Positions 26,210-55,862 of a stretch of 64,000 nucleotides of DNA are shown here, in pieces. Below the pieces are notes generated by a model, which saw only the letters and a program-made list of their open reading frames with translations, was not told the origin of the DNA and searched no databases. Source of the DNA: Octopus vulgaris (taxonomy: Eukaryota). The DNA is taken from NCBI GenBank assembly GCA_951406725.2, contig OX597817.1, forward strand, positions 38,874,001 to 38,938,000, in the 5' to 3' direction. The translations under genes and the position numbers were made by a program. Numbering within the stretch: the stretch's first letter is position 1; every line of letters begins with the position of its first letter.

Positions 26210-26248
26210 TCATTTGATGAATGCTTCTAATGGGATTTTGCCATTTGT
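26210..26248 (-). CDS. NXF1: NXF1 terminal coding exon
   Basis: tttcag| TNGKIPLEAFIK*TGA. Confidence 0.93.
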   Translation of the reverse strand, partial: TNGKIPLEAFIK

Positions 26249-28873
26249 CTGAAATATAAAGAAAACAAAGTGTGAGTAAAACTAAACAAATTTAAGAACT
26301 TAATACTGATTTCTTACAATGTCACAAGCTTTTAATTGTTCTAAAGACCAGGTCATGTATGCACTCTTCACAATGGCATTACTATGCAAACTGAAATGTG
26401 TGCAACTACCATATCCAGCCATTGCTGTTCTCCCAAAGGAATATTACTTCACTATTCACTTTATCTAAAAGCGAGAATTTCACTAAAGTCAAGGTATTTT
26501 TGTAATTGATTAATACAGTGTCAAGTCAAAAGTTTGCAATATTTCAGTAACTAATTTGTGTTATTTATCAAGTTACAACAAATGCAGCCAAGCATCCAAA
26601 GTAGAGGAAAGCATGTTGCACCAACTGAAGCCATCTTTCTACCAGTTCTTTGATCCTACACTGATATCAGGTTCTTTCTTATCTCTCACCAAAACTTCCA
26701 TTCTTCTTGGTTAATGAAGATTTGTGAGTACAGGAAGTTAACCATGGATCAGAAAAAGCTATAATCCAAGAGATATTTTTCCATAATCTGGTCATGCATA
26801 AACAGTGGTTAAACAAAGACCAGCTTCTGGAAACTGTTGCCAAACAAAGGCATTTCAAACAAAAGGTGATGCTCTGTGTTTGATGGAATTGCAAGAGGAT
26901 AAATTCAAGAGTCTGTTCCAGATTGTCAAGCCAACTTGTACTCTGAACAGCTGGAGCAGATGTTTGCCATTGTGTAACAAAAATATCAGATATTGGTAAA
27001 CAGAAAGCAAGCTCTTCTGCAGCAAGACAACACAAGACTTCATACTGCTCAAACAACCCCAAGTAAACTCCAGGAACTTGAAGGAATCAAACTGATACAA
27101 CACCCAGCATACAATCCAAACATAAACAAAACTTCCAATGCCAACAATTAAGAGTAATTAACAGTAGTTAATTTACTCATCCTCTATAAACATGCTATAT
27201 CTGTTATCAGGATAACTAAAGAAACCAACCTAGAAATGCATCTGAACCAATAATTAAACAAAATACCTAATGACCATACATTCTGAATTAAAATTTACCT
27301 TGAGGTTGAGGAAGACTTGTGCAGCTTTCTCATATTCCCAATTGTTTTGTTGTAGGCACTGCAATGAATATTCAGCATTCATTTCTGACTGGACTGAAAA
27401 CTGTGACACCATTTCTTTCTGGATTTCTGTTAATGATACATTGCACACAGCTGTGGCATTTGGGAGAGTGAGAGGAGCAGGAGGTGTATTGACAGTTTCA
27501 ACCAAAGCAGACCCTCCTTGTGTTGGACTGGATGAAGGTGTTGGTGCAGGAGTCTTGAAGGCAGACTTAAAAATAAAGATAATAAAATTACTTATTTTGA
27601 GTAGGCACAAAGACAATTTTTGGAGAGTAAAGGATGAAGTTTACATTTGAAATGAATTGTTTAGCATTTAAGGCTAGATCACATATCTCATGACACCAAA
27701 CAGACAAATAAATTTAAGGGCTCAGAAGATTAATAGTTTAACCTCTAGCCATTTTCAAGTCCTCTCATATTGCATATAAAGAAATTTGTAAACTAGACCT
27801 GATAAAGTAAACGTACAAACACCAAAGATGGCATCAACAGTCCCAAAATATAAAAAGCATTGAGTTGCTGAAAGAATTAACTCCTGTAATGTTACTGATA
27901 GCAGATTTATCAGCTCAGGAAGAAAATCAACCATGTGAATTTTTAGGAGATGAATGCCAAAATAATTTTATACATAAAATCAAATCTTTAAACATTTATA
28001 ATAAAAACAGCTCTAAAGTCAGATATCTCAATAGAAAGCAAAATCAGGCTAAAACAGATACAAAAATACATAATACATCTGCCTTTTATAAACTAAGCCA
28101 GATATGATGCTAAAATTTCCATGTAATAAAGAAACCCTCATTTTTTCACACTAAGCCATTCATTATCAAAATCAACCACATTTTCCTACCCATATTCACC
28201 ACCCCATACCCTTTCCTGCAACTCCCTGCCACTGCCAATGGCAGCAGATGGCGTTTTCATATCATGACCACCTCTTGACCAGACACACACAACACTGACA
28301 AAGGTAGAGTGAGGTGTTCAAGTTCTATTTTTACATACTGTACTAGACCACAGCTATCATCATCTTTATCAATTATGATGATGTTAATGTGTTTTGATGA
28401 AGATTATAATTGTGTTGGTCCTAATATCAATGTAAATTATTACTACATAAATGTGATTTCACTAATTAAATTATTAATTGCATACAGGCCAGCATTATTC
28501 TCATAATTCAGCTGTTTTCGAACATATTTTTCATTTTATTTTTATATTTTCAAATTATGTGAACTTACACCTGTACAAAATTTGGGTATTTTCCCTCATA
28601 AATATGATGATGGGTGATGAAGCTACATAGTTAAATTTATCTTTATATTTTTTATTTAATATTTACATAATATAATCCTAATATAACACTGAAATAAGTT
28701 TCTAAACAGGAAAAAAAAAAACAATCCATTCTTACATGTATCAATAAATAAATGACATGAAAATAGCATGATTACCTGTATCTGTTCAGAAGTGGCATTA
28801 GATATTGTCAACATGTCATTCACTATGACAATACTGAAATTATATAAATACAAATAACAAATAAATATGTGTG

Positions 28874-28915
<42 letters not shown>

Positions 28916-29359
28916 ACAAGCAACAAATGCCTGAATATATAACTTACTGAGTTGGTAACTGGAATATTAAATTAACATGAAATTTCACTGGGTTTAGTCT
29001 TAATTTAGAATATTTTGAAACAAAGATACTAAAGAAGTGGGGGAGGGGGTCTCAGGCAGGTCCATATCAAAAGGGTTTATGAATCAACATGTGGTTAAAA
29101 CCATTTGAAACCAGTTTCAAATCAAATTTCTACTGTAAAATATCTAACAAGAACTTTGCTTGAAGACTGCAATTAGATTTGGAAACATCCAATATAGTTG
29201 CAAAATGAGGCTATTAGAAGGTAAATTATATTACGTTTAATTGTACAAGCTATTTGCCAGTTTTTTTTCCCAGCACACCAATAGAAAACTTCCAATTATC
29301 TTTTTCCAGAGAAAAAACAAATTCTATGATTCTCAAATCTCTAAGATCATGTGTATGTA

Positions 29360-29404
<45 letters not shown>

Positions 29405-32400
29405 GCAAGTATCTCATGGCAAAAGCGACTAATTCTTTTAGCTATGTGGAATCAACTAATCATTTGGAAAGCAAAAAGTTAGGTTAGATTTTAAGAAATA
29501 TTTTGCAGTATAGGTTTATAAGAATATTTTCAAATTAATTAATTAATAACTAGCTAAGATGAGTGTTAAAAATCTGATATATTGTCTGAATGAAGGTTAG
29601 ACTTACCCATCCTGCTGTGGGGTTGTAATAAACATTCGACTAAATGTACGAATTGGAGGTTCCCCTTTTGATTCAGCTGTAAAACATAGAACAATGTGTG
29701 TATTAGGTTAATGCAAAATCACTAAATAATATTACATTATAGCAGCACATAAAATGAGCCTAAATATTAAAAAATTTTTAATTCATACTAAATGCCTAAC
29801 TCTATGATAATTATAACCAAAAAGTAATCTTTATATCCAACTTAACATGGATGTTTTGTTAGAATGCCAAATTCTGCATTATTTACCTTGAAAAGACCTC
29901 TCAATATGGGTACATAAAAGCAATTAATAAAATTTCCTCTATCAATTTTTGTTTATATAATAAAAATTTTAGATATTACATGAAGAGAATGTAGTTTATA
30001 GACTTTTGCAGCTAAAAAAATTGATCTGGATATTTTTCTGATATACTGACCCTCCTAAATTATGACAGTATGTGAAGCTTACTAATTTCAAAGCAAAAAG
30101 TAAACTAACCAAGAATATGGAATTTTAAGTATTTTCTTTATCAAACGAGCAATAATAAATTACTTACTTTCTTTAAAAATTCCAAAAACACTGAAAATAA
30201 GCAATGTTCTCTGAAAGAAAAGGAAAAAATTTAAATTGATTAGATACGGAATTAAGAAAAAAGTAAAATGCCATTAGAAAAAAAAATTAAGGAATACTAT
30301 TTAATTGTAGATAAGTATGTATTAGGAATGTTGATCATTATTGATTTATAATTTGAATAATTAACACTTTAGCATTTAAACTGGCCATATCTGGCAAAAC
30401 TATTCTACCTCTTTTATGTTCAAAGTTGCCAGATAGGGCCTCTCACACCTGCCCTACAAGGTCATTCTAAAAATAAAATATTACATCATCGAAATCCTGA
30501 AGCTAAAAGATAATGCTCAAATTAATTCAAAGGAATGTGAATAAATAAACATTACATTTGAAAGAATAATCTAAATGCTAAAGGATTAAACAGAAATAAG
30601 TCATGACAGTTAAAATGTTTTGCTTTGATTTTTTTTTTTTTTTTGCACTTACTGTTATATTAAAAGTAATGAAGAAAATGAAGTTAGTATAGACTGATAT
30701 TTATATAAACACATCTTTTACACAGATTAGTCAACAAATGGTGATTCTTACCGATAGGTGTTGAACATCAATGTGAAATGAATTAAGGTCATGTTGTGTT
30801 CCTGGCAACAACCGAAGCTGTGAAACAACATTAACCCGTCCAACTTTTAAGTGTTTATCACGTCGACCTGTAATCAAAACAGATTACAAATATTAGATCA
30901 ATAATAAATAACAAAAGGAAAACAATTCTCTAAAATCTAATAAAGTAACTGAGATTCAGAACTTACCAGCATTTAATTTGAGTAGATTCCTACTTTCACT
31001 GAAGTATTCATTCAATGAAGGCTGCCTGAAAGAAATCAGAGAAGTCACAAATATGATAGATGCACTTTTAACAGGGAACATGGTAGAGTATTGGTGAAGG
31101 TAAATTATTGCCAGAAAAATTAATTCCTACAGAACACATCATCTAAAAAGAACAGATTTACAAAGAAATCTTATTATAAAACTGGAACTCCAGTACAAAA
31201 ACTTTCAGAAGCAACTAATTCCAACCATTCATTGTTAAGTGCCCAGTTAGTATTATATTGACAACACTGAAGTTAGTCTTAGTAACTTTATGGAATAATA
31301 TATAAGTACAAGTAAATGACCAAGTCATTGGTTTTGACCAATGTGCCATATGGTCAACACTGCAGTTTTTACAAACTAATACAACCATTATCATGTTAAA
31401 TAAAGGTGCTACTTTGGCGTGTGATCTAAAATTTAAAGGAAAATTACTTCTGGTTACTTTTTAGTTTACTTTCCAATTTCTAAAAACCCTTAAGTTGTTG
31501 GCTAAAGACTTTTACAATGTGATCAGCGATGAGACAAAGGCAGTTGCATTTTTATGCAAAAATAACTTTTAGTTGAAGAAGAAAATGTTGCACTAAGTCA
31601 TCAGTGCGGTGGAGTAATGAACACGGCTGCCAAACTTGTGTAATCTATGAACTTATTTTAATTATTATATTGTTTATTCTTGATTTCTTAATATTCTTCA
31701 CTAAGACATAAATGAAACATAGTTTTATTGTTATTAAAATAGTAAGAATTTTGAAAAAATACGTTTACAATGCTCAGTATGTACAAAAGTATTAAAATAA
31801 TTTAGAAATTGAAAAGTAAACTAAAAAGTAATCTCCCTTTAAATTGTAGATCACATGCAAAGGTAGTACTGAAATAAATGTACAAAGAAATGATTTATGT
31901 GCACAACTACTAATAAAAGGAACAAAATGTACATACTTGCCAAGTGCACGGTTGAAGATACATGCAAATGAGAATATAGCCTGTAAAGAAATGGAAGTTG
32001 ATGATCTCAGATGAATACAAGTAAAAAGACATTTATTAAAAATTTTACAGGACATCAAAAAAAAAAAGAAATTACTGGCTATTTAATAATTCTAACAGTT
32101 CAAGGAAGTAAGAAATCAAGATTTGAGTGTTCATAAAAAGATCCTAACAGATTGCTATGTAATAGAGCTTGACACCAACCTGCTTGAGATCACCTTTTGA
32201 TACAAACTGCCTGTTTTAAAGTGATCTAAATTACTTCAAATGGTAAATTGTTCCAAATACCAGCTTATTAGGGACAAAGTTATTTTACTAAATTCTTCAT
32301 GGTTTCAAAATGAAATGAAACAAAGATAATGTATTTCAAAAGAAGCGTTGATGCTTCCTAGGGCTAAATAGCAGTGGTGTGATTCCCTCTATGGGACTGT

Positions 32401-35400
32401 CACATTAAGTTGACAGTAAACAACTGCTCTATCGTTCCACCACTGCTTATATCTCTCTGAGATATTTAGAAATTTAATATAATAGAATAAACAATTGCAA
32501 CGCGGAAGGTGTTTATAAGTCATTTAAGAAACACACAAAACCGTTAGATTCACTTCAACATTTAAATTTAATTTGTCAAAATATTTTTGTCACTTTGAGA
32601 CCGCGACCTGTTCACTGACAAAGCTGAGATGCAACACAAAGCTTTGTCAGTGAACAGGTCGCGGTCTCAAAGCGACAAAAATATTTTTGACAAATTAAAT
32701 TTAAATGTTGAAGTGAATCTAACGGTTTTGTGTGTTTCTTAAATGGCTTATAAACACCTTTCACACTGCAATTGTTTTCGTTCCAGCACATGATCTCAGA
32801 TCAAGTCACTCACTATGCAAGTACATCTCCTATAATGAAATAGTTGAATGAAAAAGGTTTTTTTTTTTTAAAGAAACATTTACAATATAAATGATTTCAA
32901 ATTCTAGATTCCTCTTCTCAGTGGAAATCTTGGTCTTATTTTGAAATAGAAAATAGAATTTGAAATTTCTGGACTACCTGGCCTTTAGAACAAGAGAATA
33001 ATCAAGTAATGTTTGTAGCTTCATTCATCTCTTCACTTCAACTAATTTCTATAACTTCACACAACTTTTCACTGTAATTTTCATTTGAACACACTTTATA
33101 TAAATATAATTTTCCTTTCAAATCATTTCAGAAAAAAAGAAATTTGAATTGAAAGACTTTCAATTCAAACTGAATTACATCTGAATTGAAAATCTAATTC
33201 AAAACTCACTAATCCTTTCATTATGAAATTAAGATTTTGCAATATATTTATACTTCATTTTATATTTGAAATTCCAATAATTATACACTATAGATTACAA
33301 TACAAATGTTTAAGAATGATTTTGCATTTATTATCCATGAATATACACAAGTGAAGTAAAACAGATATTTGCATGAATCAAGTCATTCATAAGAGAGTAA
33401 CCTGATATTTTGGTGTGAGAGAGAGAGAGAAATTGAGTTCTTCAAAAATATCTTGCCCAAGAACTCAATGCTATTCTGGTTACAAAATTAGCTTGAAAAC
33501 ATAACACCTGAATTATTAGGCTACGCCTTATTTTAAACTAATCATTTGTCAGTAAAAATAGACTTAATTTTTGTAACAGAACATATTTCCCCCTCAATTT
33601 GGTTCATTATGTCAAAAGTAAAGATATAGTTAAGAGCAATGTACAAATATTGAAAATATTTACCTGATCATGATAAGCATCAACTAATGCTTGTCTGTTA
33701 TCTGAGTCATATATTAAATAATATTGCTTTAAAAATTTAACCAGTAAATTTTGAACATCAGCATTCATGAAGTAATTATCTTTTGAAGGTGGTAGGTCAA
33801 TATCAGATTCCAAGTCGAAGACAATTGGTGGTGGAAGATCTTGGCAGTCCTACAATGAGATTTCAATGTCATTAATTTAACTTACCCACAATGCTAAATT
33901 AAAATTTCCTTCCATAGTAGTTCTGACAATTTGGATAAAATCTCATTCATTAACTTCATCACCATTCCTGAATATACTCATTCTTTTCAACTACCTTTGA
34001 GTTAGTTTCTCATACATTAAGCTTTTATATATCTCTAACTGTATAAATCAGAGATAAAAACTGAAGTACATCAAACAGCAGTGTAACAAATAGAAGAATA
34101 ACTAAGAGAATATTCTCGATATGGACAATGGATTAAGAACAATCAAACCCCATGGATTACAAAGAAAGTACATTAACTAAAACACTGACAATAACAACCA
34201 AGATGAAGCCACAACTAATCACTATTTCCATTTTGGTTGGATATAATAGATATGTTACAATGCACTCACAGTGAACCAATTCTGGGAGCAGTCATAAACA
34301 GATAATCCCATTTAATGACAACTCTCTCAGAAACGTAATGTCAACTCAATAAATAAGCTTCAGTAAAATACATTGTGATGGAAAAAACATCTAACACTAG
34401 TGACCACAACTGAAAGTGATGCTTAGCAATGTTATAGATTAACATAGTACCGATGCATTAAGTTTTGTTTCAATGAGATCCTCTTCAACTGTCTACTACT
34501 TATGAATGTATCACTATTACTAGACCAATCTGCATAGTTCAATTAATAAGTTACTGATATATTAACAATTCTTTGTTTCAATTGTCCATACATCATTGAC
34601 TACATAGTGTTGGCTAAAACCTATACATTCACTATGTAGTACTGTAGAGCATTGAAACAAAATACTGTAAACATATTGGCTGTTCACAGATTGAACAAGC
34701 TATCAATAAAGTGTTAAGTATACAAATTGGTTAATCGGAATTACTGCAGTCCTTAATAGAAGGTTTATAAGTAGTGTTGCTGTGATCAGTTAAAGAGAGC
34801 GTGGGGTATGCAGATACTGATAAAATCCCAGTATTGGATTGATCTTTCGTTTTTAATATTTGTCTGCCAAGATATTGTTTATGTCTACATTTGATTATTA
34901 CACACATAATTGTATAAAATCTAAATAAACTGCAACAAGGCTTAGCATAGAGAAAGTGACTTAATTTCTACAGTTAAAAGTACACGTTAAAATTTACCTG
35001 GCAATGCAACTCAAATAAATTAGACAAGACCAACCAGATTGTATCAATTTCTGCATCTCACATGCAACATTTAGAAGCTCAACATGAAACCCAATTAGCA
35101 ATTTTATATAGACAGTAAAAACGAACATGGACATTTACTTTATTTCAACAGATAATGGATGGAGATCTAAGGAGAAACTATCACTGATCTGAGTATTAAA
35201 ATTTAAGCAAATACTGAAGTGCAAGTTGGCCACATTAAGAAGTAGTATTTTAAAAGAAAAGTTATCAAAGTATTATTTAATATGCTCTGAAGACAAAGTG
35301 TTGTAAGAAAGTACTTGGAAATAATTATCGCTAACAAAAAGACTAACTCAAACAACTCTCATAAAATATTATGCTTGCATAGGATCAGTTAATGAAGTTC

Positions 35401-38400
35401 TGTTTAGTAGATACATACGTAAAATTGTCTTGATTCATACATATCAAAAGAGCTCTTTCACTTAAAATTAAGATAAATTCTAAAAGCTTACCAATTTTAA
35501 AACTTTTGGGAATTTCTTTCTTACAGTTCTGAAGGTAAAAGTAAATTGATAAAACATTTGAAAGGTTTCAATGAAAATCATCATCATGTTAAAAAGAATA
35601 AAGAAAAATAAAAACTCAAGAAACATGATTAAAATTGGTGTGGAGTAAATGTGTGATATAATTAATTTCCGAGATTTGCAACAAATATAATCAATATCAA
35701 GGAAGTGATTGAAGGAGAATTCTTTTTAACATTTAAAACTAAATCCAGAGGCTGGGACAAATTTGAATACATTGTGCTCAGTCAATTAGAACAGATATCT
35801 AATGCAAATCTAAGAATAGGTATGATTTATTACAGAATAGAAAAATTTTCCTACTCTGTTATTACAAAGAAATGAAGAGGAAAAAAAATTCAAAATTGGC
35901 ACAGAAGCAAATAATATAATTATTTACAAACAACACCCACATACACACCCATACACAAACACACACATGAAAGAAAAATTATGAAATAGAAATGGTTTTA
36001 AAAAAATTTAAATAAATATAAATACATTTTCACTTCACTTAAAGATAAAATCAAGGATAAATAAATAAAAAATCTTCGTCTGCTTGATTCCAGTGTTATT
36101 TTTAGAAGTTTCTTTTTCAAAGTTCCTTTTTCATTTCCACCAATTTAATGGAGAAAAAAAATATGTTGGAAAGGAGTGAAAAGCTGGGTCCCTCTCTAGC
36201 TCAGTTACAAGTTTCTGTCCCTGGTATAGGTCGTTTTCTCTTCTGGAAAAGCTGACCCGTCATCGGTGACAGTACAGTAACTGAAAGCTTGATAGTGAAA
36301 AGCGAAAAGACCAAGTGCAACCAACAGCTTCACAGCTTTCTCTCCTGATTCTGTATAATATCATCAATATCTTCCAGTAGTGAAAATTGGGAGTTTTGTC
36401 GATTCATAGATATTCTGAGTTGAAAACTTTGATTCTCTGAACAATTCTTTCTCTTCAGTTCTGCTATACCAAGATCTTCCTTTCAGATATTGCTTTATGT
36501 ATATACATATAATTAATATATATGTGTGTATATATATATAATATACATATATTATAAATGTCTTTAAATAACACTGCAGCAAGAAATTTCCATCTTTCCA
36601 CACTGATGATGTCAAATCCAAAAAAACCAAAGTAGTAATATTTTCTTTTTTTTCCAAAATACAGAGCAGATAGTTTGAGGATAATTGAAATATTGTATAG
36701 GAGTTTCGAGTCTTTTTTTTTTTTCTTCCCCCCCTTTTCTTTTCGCAAATTCAAAGTAAAAGTTCCAAAATCATAAAACTTCCATTTTATTCAGTTCTTG
36801 ATTAAATCTGAAGTTTAGTTGTTCTTCCTGTAATATAATTAATCCCGCTGACTTGGAAATGGTTCCTTTTCAAACAAAATCATGGTAATGAAGTTAAAAA
36901 TAAAAAGATACAATGGTTGCAAAAAATATTTAAAAATCATCAATTAAAAAAAAAAAAATTGAAACAAACTTCTATTTCTGGCAAATACAAATTTCATAAA
37001 AATGTTCTAATTTTTCCATGGAATTTCAGTAAATTGGTATTGTATGATACCAATCATTAATACCATCTAAATTCAAAGTAGATTAAAATGAGCTTATAAA
37101 GAAAGCAAGAACTTTTCTGATCACAAATATAAATAGAAAATAACAGGAACAGAGTTTTTACATTATATTTTTCTTTTTCACATCAGCATTTTTTTAATAT
37201 TTTCCATTTTCTTCTTTAGCATTGTTTTTTTTTTTTTTTTAGCACCTTTTGGGGTTTTTTTATTTATATTTTTCATTTTTTTTTTTTTGTTTTGTTTTCT
37301 TTTAAAATATTTCTTTCTTTTAATTTTTTTTCCTCCCATGTATTTCCTTACTGAAGTCCATTTTTGTGATCATTGAAAAGATTTTAAGTTTGGCAAACAA
37401 ATCAATACAAAAAGAAAATAAAACTATATGAAATAAAAAAAATTAAGGAATTGGTTTTTGCCAGCTTAAAAAAAAAAAGCTTCTGTGCCATTAAAAAAAT
37501 GCTAGCAGTAGATTACAAACAACAACAATCTTAAAACGCTTTTTGTTTAAGTACAATGCTAACTTGCAAACACAATCTGGAAGAACACTTATAAAAGCTA
37601 TTCTACCAGACTATGTTTGCCAAAAGAGGTTGATAGAGAGGAGATATTAATTTGTGAAGAATAAAAATTTTACAAGTTTATAGTAATTTCGAAAAAAAAA
37701 AAAAAATCAGTCTGAATAATATGGATTATGTTTAACCTTTTAGCATTTAAACTGGCTACATTCGGCCAAAATATTCTACTTGTTCTATATTTATAGACCA
37801 GATCTGGCTTCTCATACCTACCATGCAATGTCATTTTAAAAATAAACTTATAAAAATCTTGAAGCTACAAGATTTTGAATGATTAATTCAAAACAATGCG
37901 AATAAATAAGAATTAAAAGAATAATCTGAATGCTAAAGGGTTAACGCATAATGATGGTTTGTTGCATCATTCCATTAACATAAGATTATTTCTGTACTAA
38001 CAATAAACACTTTGGGTGTTTTGAATATAAAATATTAAATGTAATACCAAAATATAACTGACGATTTTCATTAATAGAAAAAAATTAATATATCATCATT
38101 TGAAAAATTAAAAGAAACAGCTTAATTTTTAATTGTCAGGAATTATTTTAAGACATTCTTATAAAGTTTCAATTCAATTTACATTTAGGAAGTTTCAGCC
38201 CAAGATCAAAATAAAAGATTTGGAGTAAAAAAAAAATAATAATAAGCTTAACTAAATGAATTTCATTTTACTTATCATTTTGAATTCAGTTTGATATGAG
38301 ATTTATAACTTTTTATATGAAATTAAAATGTGCAATAATTCCTTGCACTCTTTACATAAGAATAGTGTTTTAGTTTTATCCCCTTCCCTATTTATTTTAT

Positions 38401-38541
38401 AATGAGTTTATCCAAAACTGGCATAAACAATCCTATATGCCATTCCAATTCAAATAAGAATGAAAGCTTTTTAAACAGTAACATTTTCATAACAACCAAG
38501 CTGAATAATGCTTAGCTTTTGATCTAGAAAGATAAATTTTT

Positions 38542-38575
<34 letters not shown>

Positions 38576-41500
38576 AAAGTATCAACCAATCCACTGTATT
38601 TATTTAATGCTTTTATCCAAAGTTAAATTTCGCTGCTAAACAGAAATCAGCTAAGGATAAAAGATTACTTCTGGTTTCCATAAAAAAAGCTTTGGATAAA
38701 AATACTGAAAGAACATTTTGTAAAATGTTATTCTTTTTATCTTTATTAAGATAAAATTTTTCTTTTGACATACTGAAGAAGCAAATTTTACCAATTGTTG
38801 TCTTTCCAATCACTCAACATTATTATGATTCGATTCATTTTTTTTTTTTTTCTTTTGGTAAATTGTGTAAGTAAGTTTTTTACCACTAGCTGATTTTCTT
38901 ACAACTGCCAATCACTCAACCATCAACAGCTGAGAGTGATATAGAGCTTAATTGTAATAATCATTCAACTCCAAGAAGTATGTCTTTCCACTCGTATTTG
39001 TACCTCATTATAAAAACTTTGTGGAGAAAAAGAAATTTTTTAAACAAAATCAAAATACATATATAAAATAAAAATTTCTTAACATTGGTAGCAAGAAAAC
39101 TAGCCATAGAGGATTTGTCTGAATAATTGAATCAATCCTAGCATATAACTAGAATTGCTTCAATAAAGACAGCAAAATTAACTCTGATAATGTTTAAGCT
39201 CAGAATGTAGAGGGATTAAATACTGGAAAGCTTTAAATTTAGTACTCATAGTTTCGGCTTCTCCATCAACCTCTAGCAATGAAAACTATTATTTTCACAT
39301 TAAACTACTAAAGAAGTCTAAAAGAGAATGTGTGAGAGAGAGAGAGATGTATTTGTTCTAATTGAAAAAGCTTGCATTTAAAGAAATTCTTATCACATTC
39401 AGTCATTAGTTGACTCATAAAACTCAACAGAAAATTGGAATTTTCTTTTGTGTATAGAGATGGCCACTGTAAAACAGGAATTTCAAATCACTTCTTAGAA
39501 ATTGATTATTGGAAAAAAAATCATCCATTCATTCAAATGAAATTTTTTTAAATACTGGCAAAAATCTATGCAAAAACATTTAGCAATTTTAATCATGTCG
39601 AGTTTGGAGAAGAAAATAAATGACATAAAAAAAAACAAAACATAAGAATCACGAAATTATAAACACACACACACACGTATGTATATATATTAAAGGTAAA
39701 AAAAAAATCTTTTTAAATTAATTAATAATTGTAGATTTTCTATGTGATTACTTGCTAATGCTTAATCTAACACAAATAGACATAACTATTGATATATGCA
39801 GACCCACGTACATCTATAACAATTGCTGTGCATGTGTGCATATATATATATAAACACACAAGTACTAATCACTATTTTAAAAATGGAGCATTCCTGTAGC
39901 AACAAGCTTAATATATAGCAATTTTGTTTCATAAATACTTTCCATGTGAACCCCAGACCCAGAACAGAAAGACTATGACCTTGATCCTGCCTGTTGTAAG
40001 AAGTTGATATTTAATATGCATTGTCAGTTTCTTTTAATAACATGGTGTACAAGTATATTATATGTTTGAGTATGTGTATGCATGAATGTACTTATGTGTG
40101 TAAGCATTAAGTGTACATATAGGTATGCGTGTCTGTTTAGTGACATCAGTAACATTTACAAGAATACTGAAGCGTCATTTTTTTTCATCTACAAGCTGTA
40201 GTTATCACTAACAGACTGCATTAATAATATATATGAGTAGCAATCCCACTGTATTTTTATACTTCTCTATTTTAAATGTTCTTTAATAAAGCAAAAATAA
40301 TAGTTAAGTTCCCAATTTTGTATGCTTTACACTTCAAATACTGCTTGAAAAAAATTCAGATGTAACTTGGTGGTAATCCTTAGAAAAAATATCTAAAAAG
40401 AAAAGGTGAAAATAATTAAATACATTAAATGAAAAGAAACGTTCGTACAAAAGAAGATATTTCAAGCCAAAGCCTTACACATATGGGAGTGGATGTGTAA
40501 TTGCATGAGCACTGAACAAAGGAGATATTATATTTGTGGCAGAATTTATTTCTAGCTGACCCATGTCACCTGAAGCCTCAAACATTTTACACTGGTATCT
40601 GTGTGTAGCCTAGAGGGACAGTTTCAGCAGAGTTCCCCAAAAAATACTTTCATGTTGTTCAACAACATTTATAAGGTATGTTTACTTCTATTCACACTCA
40701 AACACACACACATACTAGGATTGTGCACCAAGGGCATCTGCACTGAGATAGAATTAAGTATACACAGTAGGAAAGAAAAATCTATGTAATCTACATAAAT
40801 GTGATGTAGCATTCATATGGTGAATTTCAACCATTTCATTTTGATTCCTTTTTCAATTGAATTTGAAAATATTCATATGCTCAATAAAGTAGTTTTTATT
40901 CTATTGCATTAATATTTCAAGTTTAATTAAACATAACCCAGTTAAAGAGGTTATTGCAAGTAACTGTGGGAAAGGAGGACAATTCAAGTATTTCATGGTA
41001 TGTATACTGTCAAACATGGGTTTTAAATAAGACAGCATGAAGATCCAGATCAATAAAGTTCCAGGCAAGTAGCTGAATATTCTGTATCCCGACTCAGTAC
41101 TGTGCCATGTTTAGAGTCAAATGGTCTGGTTCTGTAAATAGGCAGACAACCACTTGACACTAAAAACTACAGTTTGTAATTTGTCATTTACAGTGCTTAT
41201 GTCAACTCTTTCTGCTAGTAGAGAGAAGGGGTTGGATGTGCACCCTGTCCCACACTACACAACACTAAAATCTTCAGTGGTCCTCTTTGGGACTCACATA
41301 ACTTAAAATTGTTTTAAAAACAAGTCTTCAACTATGTATGCTCAGGTTTACTAAACACAAGAGAAACTGATCAACTTAAAATAGATTCCAATACTTTAAA
41401 TATATAATTAATGATGGAAATTACTGTTTACTATTAAAATAGATTATTTAATAAAGAAAATATAAATTATAGGATGTAAATGTAACTACACTTCAAGGAA

Positions 41501-44500
41501 CCATGAAATCTTTAAAAAAATAAATTTACCAAAAAAAAAAAAAATCTGGCAAATTATTTATCCATTACTCCTACCTTCATACCGAAAAAAATTACTGGTC
41601 AAGAGATAAGTTTAAACAGCTCTGATTTTAAACCCTTTTTCTGTGTGCAGCATGAGAAAAGCAAACACAGCTGGAAAAACTGGTGATACAAAAGACAACT
41701 CATCCTTTACATTACCTGACATAAACTGAATGGTCTTTAAATCTATTACACAATTCATTGCCTTCGAGGATCAATTCATCGAGTTTCCAGTCTTTAATCT
41801 TCTCTAATTCTTCAATAGACTTTAGCTAAGACAATAAGTTAAAAAAGACAAGATAAGTGATAATAAAGAGTAAAGTAGCTTCTATGGCAGTAAAAGCTAT
41901 CACATTCATTAACTTAATATAACACGGCTGAACAATTAACAAGAAAAAGAATTCATTAAAAAGTAAACAAAATCATCCTGATGTAAGAAATGTTTGTAAG
42001 AAATCAGCAAATTAAATGTTGAAACAAATCAAAGTTTAACTGTTATAATTTTTTTATTTTAAACATAAATCATACCGCAACAGTTTTTGATAAAACATGA
42101 AATAATCATTTCTAATTTAGACAATGTTAGCAACAGTGGAGAGAAGGCATTGGTTAGTCGATAGCATTGACCCTAGAGCTTAATTGGGACTTTACAACTC
42201 CTGAAGCATGAAAGACAAAATTGATCTTTGCCTTTCTAGAATGGACAACTGACCTGAATGCTTCAATAGTGCGGATTATGCTAAAGTCATCCAAAGAGCA
42301 CCAAATGGTGGTGGTAGTGGTGGTGTTGTTACACAAAATGGCAGATTAAGTCTACCACACTACAATGGCAACAGTTCTAAATAAGCTTCCACATAATTTC
42401 TGTTTAACCTCTCGAAAGAGCTGTTCTTCACTCCTGCTCCAGTGCGTTGGCTGCGGGGTCATTCCATAAAGCTCTATCTGCAACGATTTCATCTCAATCA
42501 AAGGAGAGGGGCTTTCTCCGTCTGGGTTGCGGATCCGTGGAATAAGCTGCCAGACGAGATGGTGAAGATGCCGACGACCGCTCGGTTCAAAGTCTCCCTT
42601 GACCTCAAGTGGCCTGAACTCTTTACATGAACACCACCCTGTACATAACTCCATGTCCCCCTACATGGCCTTGCTTTTTGCTTTTTGAGCCAAAAAATTA
42701 ACTAACTAACTAACATATGTAATGCTTTGCTCAACTTAAAGATACAGTAGAATATGTTTGTGGAAGTCATAAAATGCTAAAACAAATACAAAGCATTTTG
42801 CCAACACAATTCTGCTAATCCAGCTTTCACAGATTTTTTTTTTAATTACAATGCATTTCATTAAGCAACAAAATTTTAGGGTAACCTACCGTATTTTTAC
42901 CAAGATTCAAGTTTTTCAAATGAGGAGTGTAGGAAACTAGTGGAGATAAATATTCCAAAGTCACCAATTTGTTACAACTAATATCAAGAGATACCAACTG
43001 CAAATATACAAATAATGTAAATAAGTAAATATTTATTACATATATACACACGCAAGTTTAATTTCAGTAAACAAGACTTTTAAAGAAAAACTAACAATCA
43101 AAGTAAAACTGTTTGAGGAAACCAGTTATATTTGTAGAGAAAACGAAAAACTTTTTCAAACAGTTCAAAATTAAGCCCTTGTATTCACCTCTATCTGCCA
43201 CTCTCCTTTAACACTCACAAACTTACCTACCCATTCACTCTGTCTAATCCTCTGTATCACTTGAGACATCTTCACCACCACCACTCCCTCTCTCTCTTTT
43301 CCAAATGAGGTAACCAGGTATCTCCTTTACTGCAAGATACCCATTTCTGTCCTGCCACCATCAACTGGCACAAAACCAGTTCCTGCACTACGACTTCCCA
43401 CTTCAGCTGAGGGAGTCATGTCTTTTGAGCTACTTGGTAACCTCTGGGATGCAGGCCATCATTATCATCATTTAATGTCTACTTTCCAATACCAGCATGA
43501 GTTGGACAATTAGACAAGAATCTGGTAAGTCACGGGGCTGCATAATGCTCCATGTCAGCTTTGGTGCAGTTTCTACAGCTGGATACCCTTCCTAACACTA
43601 ACCACTTTACAGGTGCCATGGAAAAACACATGTAAAGTGGTTGGCACTAGGAATGGCATCCAGCTGTACAAATCATGCCAAAGCTGACATTGGAGCTTTG
43701 CACAATCCTCTGGCTTGCTAGCTCCTAACAAACCGGTTAACCCATGCTAGTATCATACATAAATGAGTGAGGTATGTCAAGGTTATGGAAGTCAAACTAT
43801 TCATATGGCTCTCTATTAACCACCACAGATATCATTGCTAAGGAACTGCAACAACAAACCACAACTATGCAAAACAAATGCTTGTTAAAAACCAATACAT
43901 TACAATAACATACTGACCTTACAAATGACATATCCATTTACTAAACTAATCTGTTCAATCAAGTAACTGATATTCACACATGCCCATTTTCATGCAAGTA
44001 AAAGTTTGAAAACATTTCTTCATATCAGTGTAACCAAACATCTACACCACTTTTTTTTTTTTTTTTTAAGTAAAAGGATTTTACATCAGTTCAGATGTGG
44101 AGGTCAATTATGCTGCCCAGCCTGGGTTAGGGCAGCTACAAACAAGCACATGAAATATTCCTACCATAGTAAGCTATAAAAAATAATCTCTTCAACTTTT
44201 TCCCAACCAATAATTATGAGATAGCACCACAATATTCACAAATGACACATGAACTAATACAGATTTCATTGTAAATAATGTTCCTTGAAAATCCTCACAT
44301 TAACCCTTTGAACCCCAGATACCTGTTGTTCTCAGCATCCTCACCCCAGCTTCCTTGGGTAAAAGAGCCAAAAAAATGATTCCTCACCTAATATTGTTTC
44401 ATCATCATCATTAGCGTCACTAAAATGTGTTTTCTGTTTCTCATATTGAAACAAAATGCCAAACTGAGGGCAACATTATCCATACCACTTTTTTTTCTTT

Positions 44501-47500
44501 TTATCACCAATACTGGTGCCTGTGGTGCCAATCAAACCAGCAGTTACTGTCTAGTTTTCCAATGCTGAAAATACTGGCCGGTTAAGCGGCCACTGGGGTA
44601 TTTGTATCTGTGGCTAGTGGCTGGAATTTGTATTTGTATCTATAGCTAGCGGCCAGAATAGTGACTGCTGGGGTATTTGTAAACATTACCCAGTAAAGTG
44701 GCCGCTGGAGTATTTACATCTGCAACTAGCAGCCGGAATAGTGGCTGCTGGGGTTCTGAGGGTTAATGACACTTTAAATCTGAAGTTGAAAATGTAGCAA
44801 ATAAAAAAGAAATTAAGGATTCTGAGATTTTGTTGTAGATAGAAACTTCAGGAGAGCTAGCAGCTTTAAATAGACATGGAGGAATGAAAATAAAATAAGT
44901 TCTTACCTCTGGTATGTTTTCTTTGATTATTGTAACAACGTTAGTCATCACTTGTGGTCGATTCAAAGCCATGAACGAATCAGTACCTTTCAACACTAAT
45001 ATATTGGAAAAGGAAAGAGAAAGGAAGTTGAGATTAATAAGATAAAAAGAAAAAAAGATAATCCATGAAAATGACAATGATTAATCCTTGTACATAAACT
45101 TAAGGAGTTACTAAAAGTACTTTTTGTTTTACTATTATCACAAAACAATTGGTCACTTAATACTCACTTTCTTCAGTGAGTGAAAGAATTTTCTATTTTT
45201 ATTACAGATGACTTCAACACAATTTTTTGTTTTTCAACACTAAAACCAAAATCTCTAATGAAATAAACTAATCAACTACTCCATGAAAATATCCTCAATT
45301 TTGTTACAAGAAATTGTAAATCAATTACCAAAACCTCATCACCTTAAGAGTTTGCTCTGGCATCCCATCACCTCCTTCCCAGCTATTCCCATCAACCCTG
45401 TATATGTGGGGTAGCCACATATCTCCACTATTACAAGATATCTGTGCTTGTCTTTCACATTGCATAAAGACCTCTCCCCATCTCAAATACTACCCCATGA
45501 AGGTGGGGTGTCCTTTTCTATCTTTCACACTTGGTAAACTTCACTAGTGATAGTGATGCATCCAGCCATAGCAACCATGCCAATGCTAGAGTTCAATGAA
45601 ACCCTGCAGCTTGCTAGATCTTGTCAAACCATCAAACCCATGCTAGTATGGAAAATGGATGATGATGGTGATAATGATTGTATCAAGACAGGAGATATAT
45701 GTTATCTATAATTCCAATATTGCAGACACAAGGTGTTCACCCAATACAAAAGATGACTTCTATTTAAAAAGTACATCATATATTCTTTTCAAGAAATAGA
45801 ATTGAATGGCTTAAGCACATGCCTGAAGCATATGATAATGGTCAATAATAAATTTTTCTCATTCCTGATGCATGAGCATGCAAGTTTCCATTACATATAA
45901 ACACAGAATAAAATTAAAAGAAATTAAACTGCAGAATGTGTAGGAATAAAAATTCTTGCTGTTAAATTTCTTACTAATTATTCATCCATTAAAATGTTTT
46001 TTATTTCATTCAACGAAACAAGTGTTAAAAGATTATACAAGGTACTTACTTTCATCTTGATACAAGCTATTTAGTCGAAGCATCTTGATAGAGGAATCAT
46101 AGCGTTCACTCAGGCAAAGCTAAAAGTAGAAAAAATTTATTGTGTATCATTATCAATTTTATCTGTTTAATAAGACCCACCATTATTTATCCATCAGATA
46201 AATTTTATTGGGGATTTTTTTTTTTTGCCTTTTAAACACTTGTATGCCTTCTCAAGCATTGACTACTATTTTGTAAATAGTGAATGAATCAATAGAACCT
46301 TGAGGATACTAACGATGAATGCCTTTGTAGCACTTGCATCTCCTTTTAAAGTAGCAGGCTATACAATGAAAATAATATCTTTAATCTAATATATAAATCT
46401 CGTTTTGTCTGTCTGTTTGTGCATTTATAACTCGAGTATTGTTCATCCAATCATGCTGAAATTTTAAACATGGATACATGAGAGAGCAGGGTGTTCCGTA
46501 ATCTAAAATGATTTTCAAAATTGTCAGTTTCAAAGTGAGAATTGCATTTTTGTAATGTTTGCCTGTCCATCGGATGATTAAAACTTCCATTTTTATTTTT
46601 ATTTGAAATTACTGTTACATATCCTGTTGTTTTTACCACTACATCAGTGAAAATTGAAATAAAATACTTAAAGCAACAGTCATCATATACAAAAGCCAAG
46701 GTCCATGAAGTGTCATGGACCAAAAAATATTTCCAACTTCTTGCCTAATGCGAGCCCAGAGCAGTCTCTTACACTATTTCACTATTCTGCCTCTATTGTA
46801 ATGTGAAATAATACTTTCAGTTTGAAAGAAGTCTGTTATATTGGTGTGCTAAACACAAATTGTCATTTTTGTAGAGCTTTAAAATTTTCACTGTTGTATT
46901 TATTAAATTACTTGAGGTGTTATTATAAAAGTGCATAAGTGTTATCTGGTATGCAGATATACAAATATGTTATATTCACTTTGGAAATGCAGAAAATCAC
47001 AAAACAAGTGTGAAATTTATCTAATGAACTTTTAAGAAATGACTATTACCTTTAGTTTATCCAGTGTTCTATCATCCAGGGTTAAGCCAGGTGCACAAGA
47101 AGGTTTCACAATTACAGCCAACTAAAAATATATGTGGTAAACTAGTTAAAATGGTTGTAAAACATTAAAATATAAAAATTTTTACTTCAAAGCTAATTTA
47201 GAAAATGGAACAAAATAGCAAACAAAAGAAATTAAAGGATATTTCCACTTAAGGATTTTTATCAGAATGTCACTTTCAGACCAACAACCACTTGAGCACA
47301 CATTTGCAGGAGTGAAGAAATGGAATTACTGCCTCCACCACTCCCATGACAGTCACCATAGCATTTTTAGAAACCTCCTAGCACTCACTCACATACCAAC
47401 TGTACAGGATTTGGAAATGGTACTTGTAAATTAAAGCCCCACCCACCCACTTGTTTTTTACAAATACTTTTAGAAATAATTGATATATTCCAATAACGAC

Positions 47501-50500
47501 GAAGCAAACCTACTTTGAATCCATCAGGCATCATTATCTTCTTATCCACTTGACGGATAGCATCTGCAGTAACTTTATCTTGGACATAAAAACAACAGCT
47601 GCCACGTTCATTTTTAAACTGAAAAGTTGAAGTAAATATATATAGACAAAATCATTTCTTTTTCACTTTCTCCTGTAGGATAAAGATAACAAAATATTTA
47701 TTAAGTCTAACCAATCACACTGTTGTAAAAGAATCGCACAGAGTTTATGTACTTGATAAAATCCTGTCGGCACTTTTACATTGATGTAGGTGGTATCTGA
47801 TCTCACAAACCATCTCAAAACTCAGAGATGACTATGATTTTTTATATATAGATATATTTATATATCTATAAATAAAAATATAACATGGAAGATAACCACC
47901 AACAGAAAAGCAATTAATCATACAATCATATTTTTCATACATTCACTAGAACAAGTTTCAATGCAGTTTAATATAATAAATGATCACACTTGGAAATCAA
48001 TGTAGAATAGTGAGTAGTTGACAAAACAAAATCCACTAAATTAATAAAAATTAACAGAGTTGTTTTATTAAATTTCACAATTTTGCCATTAAATGAAGGA
48101 GAACAGTTCTGACTTTAAGGAACTCAACTACTGAGCATGCAGTCCCAAGTTCAAGCCTTTCTATAATTATTGTTACATTGAGTTTCAGTTATTTTTACAA
48201 TTACCACTATATTATGCTTGTAGCTTTGGTCACAACTTCTTGCAGGTCAAATGAACACATGCTACAAATACTGAATAACCACCCTCCATGTCACAGTAAC
48301 TTCAAAATAATATAATCACACTGTAACACCAAGCAAACATCTTTCTCAAACATTCTTTGAAGATCAGCCGCAAAAATAGTAACTCTTTCCTGCCATCAAA
48401 CACTCCAATAGCAATGGGGAAATTTAAAAACTCAAGAACTAATATTTTGAACCTGAAGGTATCCCTACTGCTACCAACATATACAACCATTTTCACTCAA
48501 CACTGTTAAATTCCCAGAATCTGAAAGCTGGGTGTAAAATGGCTAATCTTTAACATCACAAACCTACACATTCCTATTTTCAAACCACAACACTTAACTC
48601 GGACCACTACATACAAAAAAGAATAAATAAATTAATGGTGGCTTTAAACAAATAAACAATAAAATAAAATTCCTCCAACACAATAGCTTCATAAGTGCAG
48701 CAACTGGGTAAATTCACTTTGACAGCTGTTTCATAGAGGGAAATTATAACAAACACCAAGAATATAATTTTAAAAAACATTTTAAATAAATTCATTCACA
48801 ACTTTATGAAGGATAATATAATTTGACTAGAAAGAAAAAATTCCCATGCAGTTAATAAATTAAATAGATATTAATGTAACTAAGAGACTCACAAATGATA
48901 CTTGGAATGGCATATTGATATAACTTTCGATTTCTCTAATAATAAAATTCCTTTCCAACTTCTGTCTGCATGGTATCTAAAAAAAAACAAAACGTAAAAA
49001 AATTTCAGTCAGGATGTTAAAATATATTTTTTTTTAAATCTCATAAGTTATATAAAAATCAAGCAGTAAATTTATCAGTCATCATAGTATATAATATTGA
49101 TACTGATTTTACAAATATTAAAAAAAAAAATTAAGAGATAAATGGGATCTTTTCCTTTTGAACGGCACTTTGTAACATAATTTCTAGGTAACTAAAAAGT
49201 TTTAAACTTCGTATATGGTAGAATGTGTTTATAAAACATCATTTTCTCTTGGCTTTATTGAGAAAATTCTATGGGTTGTAAGATATTTCGTCTTTAATTT
49301 CAAGCATTTTGGCAATTTTAACCAATCGCTTATGTCCATTTAGGTAAATAACATTCTGTGCATAATGAATATGTCCCTCCTTTAAGAAACAGATTGGGTT
49401 TATTTACATTTGTGAAGAAAAAAAGAAACCCTTCCCCAACCCCAACTCTAACCCTAAATCTAAAATAGATTGAAATGCAATAGATCGATACTAGGGCCAT
49501 AATTATGGGTGACATTTTCATTTGACACTGCTAGAAAAAAATCTTATTTTCCGTAGCGGTGTCGTATGAAATTGTCACCCATAATTATAACCCTAGTATT
49601 GATCTATTGCATTTCAATCTATTTTAGATTTAGGGTGAGAGTTAGGGTTGGTTAGGGTTAGAGGTGGGGGAAGGGTATATTTTTCCTTCACAAATGTAAA
49701 TAAACCCAATCTGTTTCTTAAAGGAGGGACATATTCATTATGCACAGAATGTTATTTACCTAAATGGATGTAAGCGATTGGTTAAAATTGCCGAAATGCT
49801 CAAAATTAAAGACAAAATATGTTACAACATATAGAATTTTCTCAATAAAGCCAAGAAAAAAATGATGTTTTATAAACACATTCTACCAGTATACGAAGTT
49901 TAAAAGTGTTTAGTTAACTAGAAATTGTGTTGAAAAGTGCCGTTCAAAAGGAAAAGATCCGATAAATGAAATTAGATACAAGTCCAATTGAGCATGATAA
50001 GTTTGCCAACAATTTATCAACTATTTATCTTAGTCTCTCAGCCATGTATTTTGATTTTGAATAGTAATTACAATGAAAAGATGAGGAAAATTTTCCAACC
50101 GTCACTATACTGTAATCACAATTTGTATGATTCAACTTCATCTAATCGACATTCAGTTATATTAAATATCAACTTCCCACTGGGTTAACCAAGTATCTTC
50201 TCTAGAGCAAAACACCTGTTCATGTCCCTTTATCATACTTTAACCTCTCATCACTTGGCATAAAACCACCTCCTCCTACCTCAGCTGAGGGATTTTGTCT
50301 TGCAAATTATTTAGTGACCTCAATGGTGCTGGTGCCACATAAAAAGTACCGGTACACTCTGTAATGTGGTCAACATTAGGACGGCATCCAATCACAGAAA
50401 CCATACTAAAGCAGGCACAGGAGTTTGGTGAAGTCCACAACTTGTCAGATCCTGTCTAACCATCTACCTAACAACAGCATAAAAAACGGATGTTAAATGA

Positions 50501-53500
50501 GGAGGACGATGTTATATATATCTTCCATAATCTTTTTACAATTTACATCCCCCTTATACACAGAAATAAGTGTAGAACAGCTTTAATAAGCAGTTGATAG
50601 CTGGAACAACCTTCAAGTTGAACCTATATCATTACACTGAATCAAATAGTTATGTACCAAGGACAACTAAATGGCTGGCAACACCCACCACTTCAACCTC
50701 ATATTGCTTGAGAGGTTTCTAAGATTTTTTTTGTTTTTTTTTCCAGCAAGCCACTAAGTGCATGCTGCAAAAATATGTCATTTCATACAAAATTTGTTCT
50801 TGTATCATTTTATAACAATTTTAATTTCATAAAAATCGAAAAACTGAAAAACAAAAACTTGTTCTTATGAAATAGTAATATTGCAGTTTATAAAGTTACA
50901 TAGAAAGGTAAGTGATTTGTATTTCGAAGGATTTTATAAAAGGAAAAATATATATACCTTTACACGATACCAATTATTATCAGAATGTTTGCTATGTACT
51001 GGTAAGCCAAGACGTTTTAATCGACCTGCAAATATAAAGAATTAAGTTCATACAAAATTTGAGTACCAGTAGTATATAGAATTCTGAATTGAAAATGGTG
51101 TCAGTTGTAGATATAATTAATCTAAAAATTAAACTTTCTATTCAAACAAATTTCAAATATCTCATGTATGTTTTTTATGACACTCAGTCAGTTACGACGA
51201 CAAGTGTTCCATTTGATCCAGTCAAAAGAACAGCCTGCTTGTGAAATTAACATGCAAGTTGCTGAGCACTCCACAGACATACACACCCTTAATGTGGCTC
51301 TCAGCGAGATTCAGTATTACACAGACTGTGACAAGGCAAGCCCTTTGAATTTACAGCTGAGAGGACTGCAACAAGGTGAGATAAAGTGTCTTGCTTAAAG
51401 ACAACACACTGACGGGAATCGAATGCATGACGTTATGATTGTGAGCCAGTTACCCTAACTAAGCTACACACCTTCACTTCATGTAACAAATCAATAACTA
51501 TTCTACTGTTAAATTAAATTACACAGAAATTATGAATATTTGGGGTGTTTATGTTTTTTGATGTGATGCTTTTATGCAGTTTATACAACCATAACATGGT
51601 GCAGACAATGTATAACAATGTAAAAAGAGAACTATAATCAAATACTAAAGCAAATTAAACATTTTTTCTCTCTATAAACACTTGTTTCTTTACTTGTTTA
51701 AAGTTCACAAAAGATTTCAATTGAAAATTAAACTCACCGCTGTTCTGCACTTTATCCATCTCTAAGATCTTATTCTGAGGTCGCTTCCTGTGATTTTTAC
51801 GATAAGGCACACTGATAAAAGAATATTAAATATAGGAGTTAATACATTATTATCTCATATATTCTGATTAATATATGTTAACTTTTTATATATTTCTTTC
51901 ACCTTCTTGGTCATACTGTTTCTATTCAAGCTCATGACTGACAATAGTCATGTAGCTTATCCCGCTTCTTCTCATTTCCATTACAGTACAATGGCTGGAC
52001 AGGTTTTCATGGAAGATTTTAAACAAATGACATTGCTTGTATGATGGTGATGTTTGTTTACAATCAGTGTGCAATATCAAGGAGACACAAGCACACATGC
52101 ATATACAGATGAGTTTCTTTCAGTTTCCTTCTACCAAATCCACTCAAAAAGCTTTCAGCCAGGTGCTACAGAAGTCACTGAAACCATGGAACTCATCTGG
52201 ATACCAGCTTATAACTGGGGAGCATTTACTGTTAAATCATTCACATTACCCAGCAGTAAAGAAGTAAAAGCTAAAAATTGTCATACACAAATGATTTACT
52301 AACAGAAAGAAGCCACATCTTGAAATACTTAGAATTTTGTAAAACTTTACAATTCATTCTCTTTGTTATAGTATTTCTTCTATATTTATTAACCCTTTTA
52401 ATACTAAGTTGTCTGAGACCATCTCTGGTTCTATGATACAAACTTCCTAATTAAAGTGATCTAATTAAAACCTGTTAATTTATATTCCAAATGCATGTAC
52501 CAAGCTGGTGCTTGGAACATTATGTTACTTTACTTAATTCTTCATTCTTTTCAAAATTAACTCAAACCACGGCAACTGAAGAGATTAAAAACGAACTGGG
52601 TTTAACAGATATAAAAACATTTTGAGAAATGATTTTATTTGAATACTGCAAACTTTACATCTAAGATGTAACAATCCATAAGACAAAAAATTAATTACTG
52701 TCTTTGATTTGAGACTCCTGGTAAATCATCACCCATTTGGAAATCATCTTCATCGTCAAGATGTGATCTAGGATTTGCTCCGCCAGCGCCACCTGAAGAA
52801 AAGAAACAGAACAATTAAACCATCTTATGGTTCTAAACTGAAATATAAATTAGACTTTCTTTTTACAGATTTTTCAATCCGGACTGTTGCCATAGTAATG
52901 AAGATAAAGCATGCAGAGTGAAGCCACTTGGCACAAATTGGCCTTGGACTCTGTGCATGTGCACTAAATTTTAACATTCTAGCTCACTTCCACTGTTTAC
53001 AGCAGTGCTTGAGAGCAACGTGTGTAGCATGTGATTGTTGTAATGACCATGACAGAGAAAGTTGCGCAGAGAATCTGCATCAAATTTCGCCAAAAGCTTG
53101 GCAATATCTGCTCAGAGGCCTATGCATAGTTTCCAAAACGCTTTCATCATTCTCAACACAATCAAGGAGATTCTTGTGCAACTGAAACCCAAGTGTCTTT
53201 TTGGGTGGCTGAAAGTTTTGGCACAAACTTGGCAGAAACACATCTCATACCCAAGTCTTCAGTGATAATGGACTGAACTGAACTATAACTTATCTGCACA
53301 TCTGATTAACTCACGGTTGGTGATTCGACAATTTCCCCTCACAGTTGCATGTACATCTGCAATGTTTTTCCCAGTTCTGCTGGTTGCAGGTCTCCAGAAC
53401 GTTCATCACTATCAACATTTTTACGGCCATCTCAGAAACATCTGAACCATTCATACACGTGTGCAGCTCATACACTTTCTGCAACTTTGCATAGGCCTCG

Positions 53501-55778: not shown

Positions 55779-55862
55779 CTGAATAAAACAATAGAATAAT
55801 AAAAATAATAATAATTCTGAAAACAACAATATAAGCACCCCCCCTCCAGCTCTAATGCTTTC

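Follow-up and report, generated by a model that had tools for sequence, protein, structure and literature searches.

Does an invertebrate NXF1 gene contain an RNA element through which its protein could act on its own intron-retaining mRNA? The question is raised by a 64,000-nucleotide stretch of Octopus vulgaris DNA (GenBank assembly GCA_951406725.2, contig OX597817.1, positions 38,874,001 to 38,938,000), called the window here, in which an earlier note, made from the letters alone, had pointed to a CTE-like hairpin within an NXF1 intron. The published cellular CTEs with this loop come only from mammals, zebrafish and coelacanth, and BLAST is stated to have found no CTE in fly or worm, according to PMC4338338. 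In the literature searched, which leaves most subscription journals outside, no paper on an invertebrate NXF1 CTE was found. We consider it fairly likely (a probability of about 0.6) that the octopus hairpin is a co-evolved CTE variant, under selection, through which NXF1 acts on its own mRNA when this intron is retained.

The NXF1 gene and its cassette intron

The host gene was traced on the minus strand. One of its exons is a 100% match to the protein P0001, which is labelled Octopus sinensis nuclear RNA export factor 1, and the NTF2-like exon of NXF1 matches once in the 2.8-Gb genome G000, at the gene in the window. The parts of the gene that concern the cassette intron are these:

26213..55779, minus strand: NXF1 gene, 21 traced coding exons, P0001 residues 23-642
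41716..41825, minus strand: 110-nt exon with the end of the LRR repeats (P0001 residues 301-337)
41712..41714, minus strand: in-frame TAA, intron bases 2-4
35529..41715, minus strand: NXF1 cassette intron, 6,187 nt, GT..AG, equivalent of vertebrate intron 10
35492..35528, minus strand: 37-nt exon TVRKKFPKVLKL

The first step of the proposed mechanism can be read directly from this arrangement. Retention of the intron-10 equivalent would stop the protein after residue 337, leaving the N-terminal part, the RRM and the LRR without the NTF2-like or the UBA domain. In a protein alignment the exon junction aligns with human S339/A340, a position that fits the short form of Nxf1, 356 amino acids long, that vertebrates make from their intron-10-retaining mRNA (PMC5170612). 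The vertebrate NXF1 intron-10 CTE is among the closest known systems: it shares with the octopus candidate the gene, the orthologous intron and a single internal loop (PMC4338338, PMC5170612), and in both cases retention would lead to a short RRM-LRR protein, of 337 amino acids in octopus and 356 in mammals.

The earlier note had placed the hairpin at the orthologous position. This is correct for the intron, as attested by the 110-nt exon, the intron, the 37-nt exon and the S339/A340 junction, but not for the place within it. The distances from the element to the splice sites are 5,369 nt on the 5′ side and 642 nt on the 3′ side (it spans 642-817 nt upstream of the 3′ splice site, close to the 650-820 nt estimated before), whereas vertebrate CTEs are found closer to the 5′ splice site (PMC4338338). 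The element is also the GC-richer island that it had been said to be, with a GC content of 0.46 against 0.28 for the intron, and the two highest-GC windows of the 118 100-nt windows scanned overlap it. Among sequencing runs, none recorded as RNA was listed as a holder of the words searched; 20 rows from nine studies hold at least half of 17 words, 15 of the 20 being classed as RNA by guess only, and none of these rows enters the evidence; two rows of a second organism label, both from one study, hold 0.77 of the words, a value that comes without a flank control.

Other structures were observed in the same region. A second intron hairpin at 37566-37620 (minus strand), with approximately 25 bp and a 4-nt loop, folds more strongly than the CTE-like core (z -5.3, 0 of 200 shuffles); it is single copy in G000 and has no Rfam match, and it may give rise to a small RNA or serve as a double-stranded substrate for editing. 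The intron windows 39066-39215 and 41066-41165 (minus strand) have fold z scores of -3.7 and -3.2 (30 shuffles each), and by eye the stretch 37790-37940 (minus strand), with inverted ends of about 16 nt, resembles a small non-autonomous element. The preceding intron includes a GC-richer stretch at 42150-42700 with a plus-strand frame at 42397-42630, which we take to resemble the end of a LINE reverse-transcriptase protein.

Fold and loop strands of the hairpin

Pattern searches yielded three type-D viral loci, L004-L006, in which each strand occurs twice, and L042, a metagenome contig with a four-strand viral-type array; the viral copies compared were eight in total. The features of the element are as follows:

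36171..36346, minus strand: the extended hairpin of 176 nt, present in one copy, GC 0.46
36201..36284, minus strand: core hairpin, 84 nt, which keeps the CTE-like loop in register (predicted fold)
36268..36284, minus strand: 5′ sides of the two outer helices, of 8 bp and 5 bp, whose partner is 36201-36219 (predicted fold)
36255..36266, minus strand: 5′ loop strand CCGAUGACGGGU, equal to CTE C42-U53, with G at 44
36229..36257, minus strand: apical arm, GGUC/GACC plus the capped stem UUUUC/GAAAA (predicted fold)
36220..36231, minus strand: 3′ loop strand ACCUAUACCAGG, equal to CTE A8-G19, with U11, A12, C16, A17 and G18 kept
36224..36226, minus strand: bulge triplet UAC replacing A13-G14-A15, which is AGA in all eight fetched viral copies

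The 84-nt core sequence reported in the earlier note is present without a single difference on the minus strand, the NXF1 sense strand, at 36284-36201. In the ensemble fold of the core, CUGUC/GACAG, CC/GG and GGUC/GACC have pair probabilities of 0.99-1.0, the outer 8-bp helix 0.65-1.0 and the apical 5-bp stem UUUUC/GAAAA 0.55-0.57, and the core helices are unchanged when folded in a 381-nt context. The additional helices, said to extend the hairpin to about 175 nt, are also predicted in the 176-nt fold, where the basal GGUC/GACC and AGGAG/CUCCU reach 0.91-0.97 and 0.75-1.0; the AAAGCUG/CAGCUUU helix has a pair probability of 0.54-0.99, and the basal extensions are weaker in the 381-nt context, where values go down to 0.47-0.72. 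In the predicted fold the internal loop is closed, as in a CTE, by CC/GG and by GGU/ACC with a G.U pair, G36258.U36228, which is unpaired with a probability of only 0.06. Of the 7x7 loop described before, the closing pairs stand and the size does not; the loop is better written as 6x6 closed by G.U, as in the viral half-site.

The stability of the 176-nt fold is moderate (z -2.0; 7 of 200 shuffles as stable). The core, whose ends were picked by eye, reaches z -3.3 (0 of 200 shuffles) and -3.6 (1 of 1000), and the opposite strand is equally foldable (-30.2 vs -27.4 kcal/mol). Folding energy alone is moderate and not exceptional. The non-random signal is the motif pair together with the helices that keep it in register. 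The element also includes the 9-mer CAGCUUUUC twice (36246-36254 and 36178-36186, minus strand), and the arm 36333-36340 could pair with either copy, so that a different fold with an open apical arm is conceivable; in the ensemble the basal copy (36178-36186) is the favoured partner.

Comparison with the fetched L005 bore out the match of 11/12 and 9/12 claimed for the two strands, the 11/12 match being to the AUGACGGG strand. The G at 44 is a natural variant, present in two of the eight fetched viral copies. The AAGACA hexamer, tested against these eight copies, is absent from the octopus loop, which has AUACCA instead, and a four-base change of the hexamer is reported to disrupt NXF1 binding (PMC4174252). 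The 5′-splice-site-like GGGUAA beside the loop, present in seven of the eight fetched viral copies and conserved in vertebrate CTEs (PMC4338338), is replaced by GGGUCA (GGGUCAGC). The octopus element differs from the vertebrate CTE in both of these motifs. Since the hexamer was tested and is absent, the hairpin is not filed as a CTE member. With respect to the type-D retroviral CTE, the octopus hairpin is alike in its strands, its closing pairs, the G.U pair and the order of loop A. It is unlike it in having UAC in place of AGA, one loop in place of two in two-fold symmetry (one strand pair is present, with no further match of at least 9/12 nearby), and stems that are unrelated in sequence and capped by an apical hairpin of their own.

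The positions at which the loop differs can be interpreted with the structure of the CTE loop in PDB 3RW6. This loop is kink-turn-like, with the pairs G18/A48, A17/A44, A17/G47 and U11/G50, and its flipped-out A13, G14, A15 bulge is the TAP-binding site (PMC5961109). All ten bases named for it agree with L005 under a single numbering. The octopus loop keeps U11, A17, G18, G47, A48 and G50, that is, six of the seven kink-pair bases, the exception being A44G, the natural variant also seen in the viral copies. The three changes in the AAGACA strand (AGA to UAC) fall exactly on A13/G14/A15, an outcome expected at 1 in 35 for three random changes among seven loop bases. This exact coincidence of the changes with the flipped-out TAP-binding bases is a new observation. 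Because the kink bases are kept and the differences are located exactly at 13-15, the pattern argues for a selected three-dimensional scaffold. For function it cuts both ways, since positions 13-15 are those read by human NXF1, and an altered hexamer is reported to disrupt binding. The caveat of the earlier note, which had suggested a co-evolved variant, gained specific support, as the changed bases are the flipped-out protein-contact bases.

Two further comparisons with the viral loci were set aside: a collinear reading with viral loop B, possible because the two strands are nearly symmetrical, gave 16/24 matches vs 20/24 by hand count and is not preferred, and a 9-mer common to the octopus and viral flanks was judged to be due to chance. 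The two CTE loop strands of L004-L006 and L042 are themselves alike at 9/12 when shifted by one base, a sequence likeness suggesting that both may derive from one repeated unit.

Chance, copy number and strand order

Could the resemblance be fortuitous, an ordinary intronic hairpin with CTE-like words that was noticed because it was sought in an NXF1 intron? The intron holds other strong hairpins, with z down to -6.2, and the z of the full 176 nt and the foldability of the opposite strand, both given above, would suit this explanation. The motif pair does not. A pair with at least 20/24 matches, in either strand order and with a spacing of 4-120 nt, was found in 12 of 39,118 dinucleotide shuffles of the intron (about 3e-4) and in two of 40 window tiles; within the window no pair but the element reaches this score. 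If the ten closing bases have to be intact and at most four loop mismatches are allowed, the expected count is 1.4e-5, and when the motif was fixed and the spacer and flanks were shuffled none of 8,892 shuffles was as stable around the loop. Taken together, the motif-pair shuffles, the flank shuffles and the closing-base expectation place the CTE-like loop far beyond chance. Furthermore, a 20-base loop pattern with positions 13-15 and 44 free, which were set with the octopus sequence in view and before the structural description was consulted, has one match in the 2.8-Gb genome, at the element, while the reversed control and the other strand order had 0 matches each in that genome. As the mismatches are also limited to structurally free positions, we regard a chance resemblance as very unlikely.

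The earlier note had considered that the sequence could turn out to be a multi-copy repeat. Instead, the 176-nt stretch is single-copy in G000, as determined by a DNA search that may skip common words. This result also bears on the proposal that the hairpin is the remnant of a retroelement with a viral-type CTE that was inserted in the NXF1 intron. Such an origin would agree with the strand order and with the 36-nt CC-to-CC spacing, which equals that of consecutive strands in L042 (36) and is near that of L004-L006 (35-40), as well as with the other mobile-element fragments in the NXF1 gene. However, the element is single copy both by the DNA search and by the pattern in both orders, it has one loop only, comparison by eye showed no resemblance to the spacers or flanks of the viral loci, and a chance landing in this one intron is unlikely. 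A retroelement remnant is thus highly improbable.

A looser two-strand pattern was used to scan metagenomes and returned 91 loci, 46 of them distinct. With the loop enforced, three of the 46 fold within 2 kcal/mol of their optimum, and only L042 folds at -25 kcal/mol or below, as the octopus element does. The array at L042:736-854, four CTE strands with a regular 36-nt period, flanked by an env-like end on one side and an LTR-like stretch on the other, is a natural viral-type CTE variant. None of the 91 loci includes an NXF1 exon, for a pattern whose fixed spacing misses other lengths, and scans guided by the protein, made in viral contigs and in genomes of prokaryotes, gave no NXF1 locus. A still looser two-strand pattern was dropped, 13 of its 14 viral-contig matches being repeats with two like strands. 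A search of Rfam produced eight weak matches in 33000-40000, none of them at the element. This null result is uninformative because the true CTEs in L005 and L042 were missed as well. No family of Rfam 15 detects them, and CTE-type elements are in this sense invisible to standard annotation.

The order of the two strands is relevant to ancestry. In octopus the AUGACG strand comes first, as in the base-proximal viral loop A. The vertebrate order is probably the reverse, a deduction made from a statement about the fold rather than from a vertebrate sequence: the 53-nt vertebrate core is said to fold identically to the MPMV stem-loop (PMC4338338), and the viral apical half is a contiguous short stem-loop with the AAGACA strand first, as indicated by primers (PMC4330393). 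The published vertebrate loop numbering (32-37 and 68-73, PMC4338338) fits either order within one base, and the 36-nt spacing was for this reason dropped as proof that the octopus and vertebrate elements are collinear. NXF1 is bound by each of the two viral lobes (PMC4330390), hence in both strand orders, so the order is informative about ancestry rather than function. The strands could have been permuted by a tandem duplication and a later loss of the outer ones; a regular 36-nt period is seen in the L042 array. The alternative to a permuted inheritance is an independent origin in the same intron. The element may thus have come down from the bilaterian ancestor in permuted form, or it may have been rebuilt where it now lies; descent from that ancestor is plausible but not established.

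The NXF1 contact surface and a candidate mechanism

Much of the surface with which NXF1 contacts a CTE has changed in octopus as well. Of the 21 CTE-contact residues listed in PMC4330390, octopus NXF1 keeps seven and eight vertebrate proteins keep 10-16, in a table in which 41 of 120 listed proteins were aligned and seven unnamed ones were omitted from the counts. N248, R249, K304 and S305 are kept in octopus; R233Y, R276K, Y278V, R279T and R307E are changes. R233 is present in all eight named vertebrate proteins and in none of the 26 named protostome proteins. Since this residue is confined to vertebrates among the named proteins, a different bulge would be expected in a protostome CTE. As a sequence comparison, the retention of 7/21 contacts would fit loss of binding as well as co-evolution.

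These data have to be weighed against the possibility that the fold is derived from a CTE, or shaped like one, and is no longer read by NXF1, either as a relic or as a kink-turn-like platform that offers its UAC bulge to a different protein, or to a tertiary contact with RNA affecting splicing of the intron. All three contact bases and the residues R233, Y278, R279 and R307 are changed, as this explanation would have it, and the same motif class is known to use its bulge for an RNA-RNA contact. The kink-turn-like loop 242-247/278-284 of 16S rRNA (PDB 1FJG) clusters with the CTE loop and has a G at the equivalent of octopus G44, although it belongs to the ribosome, pairs its bulge base with an RNA base far away and has no link to NXF1 (PMC5961109). 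Yet a relic should decay in its scaffold and helices, whereas here the bases of the kink persist and none of the 8,892 shuffles has flanks that pair as well, and the host is the sole gene and intron for which NXF1 binding is the known function (PMC4338338). We consider a relic or a platform for another partner unlikely, if by some way the most serious of the competing explanations.

The co-evolved CTE variant, our preferred reading, would operate as follows if the intron is retained. The flanking helices are predicted to juxtapose the two strands that keep the kink-forming bases, and the expected outcome would be an L-shaped, kink-turn-like RNA fold with the three-base bulge flipped out. The RRM-LRR part of octopus NXF1 may then bind this fold, reading UAC in place of AGA with its altered contact surface. 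By analogy with vertebrates, binding would make the level of NXF1 dependent on, or tied to, what becomes of its own mRNA with the retained intron, which could be exported and give the short isoform, or decay as feedback. Speaking against this reading are the lack of AAGACA, GGGUCA in place of GGGUAA, a location towards the intron's 3′ end and the probably reversed strand order, by all of which the hairpin also differs from the vertebrate element, as well as the small share of contact residues kept. More tentatively, it may be proposed that the kinked scaffold is fixed while the bulge and the LRR surface co-evolved into lineage codes (AGA/R233 in vertebrates and UAC/Y233 in octopus), and that the octopus element is the cellular equivalent, strand-permuted, of viral loop A. 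In that case each half of the retroviral CTE would have a precedent in cells.

Among protostomes, an intron-containing transcript of sbr (nxf1) has been reported in Drosophila heads (PMC8151460). As a protostome nxf1 with an intron-containing transcript, this case resembles the one proposed for octopus and counts in favour of the preferred reading; the BLAST search mentioned above detected no CTE there (PMC4338338), and whether SBR binds this transcript is stated to be unknown (PMC8151460).

If the co-evolved variant is real, a fixed scaffold with a changed bulge would explain why sequence searches have missed a protostome CTE, and it would give a rule for finding others: leave positions 13-15 and 44 free and allow both strand orders. 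It would also represent a natural swap of RNA-protein specificity, testable by gel shift. The octopus element also has a bearing on whether the retroviral CTE came from cells, as has been proposed. The hairpin hints that the self-regulating device of NXF1 predates vertebrates and, if the reading is true, the origin of NXF1 self-regulation would shift toward the bilaterian ancestor.
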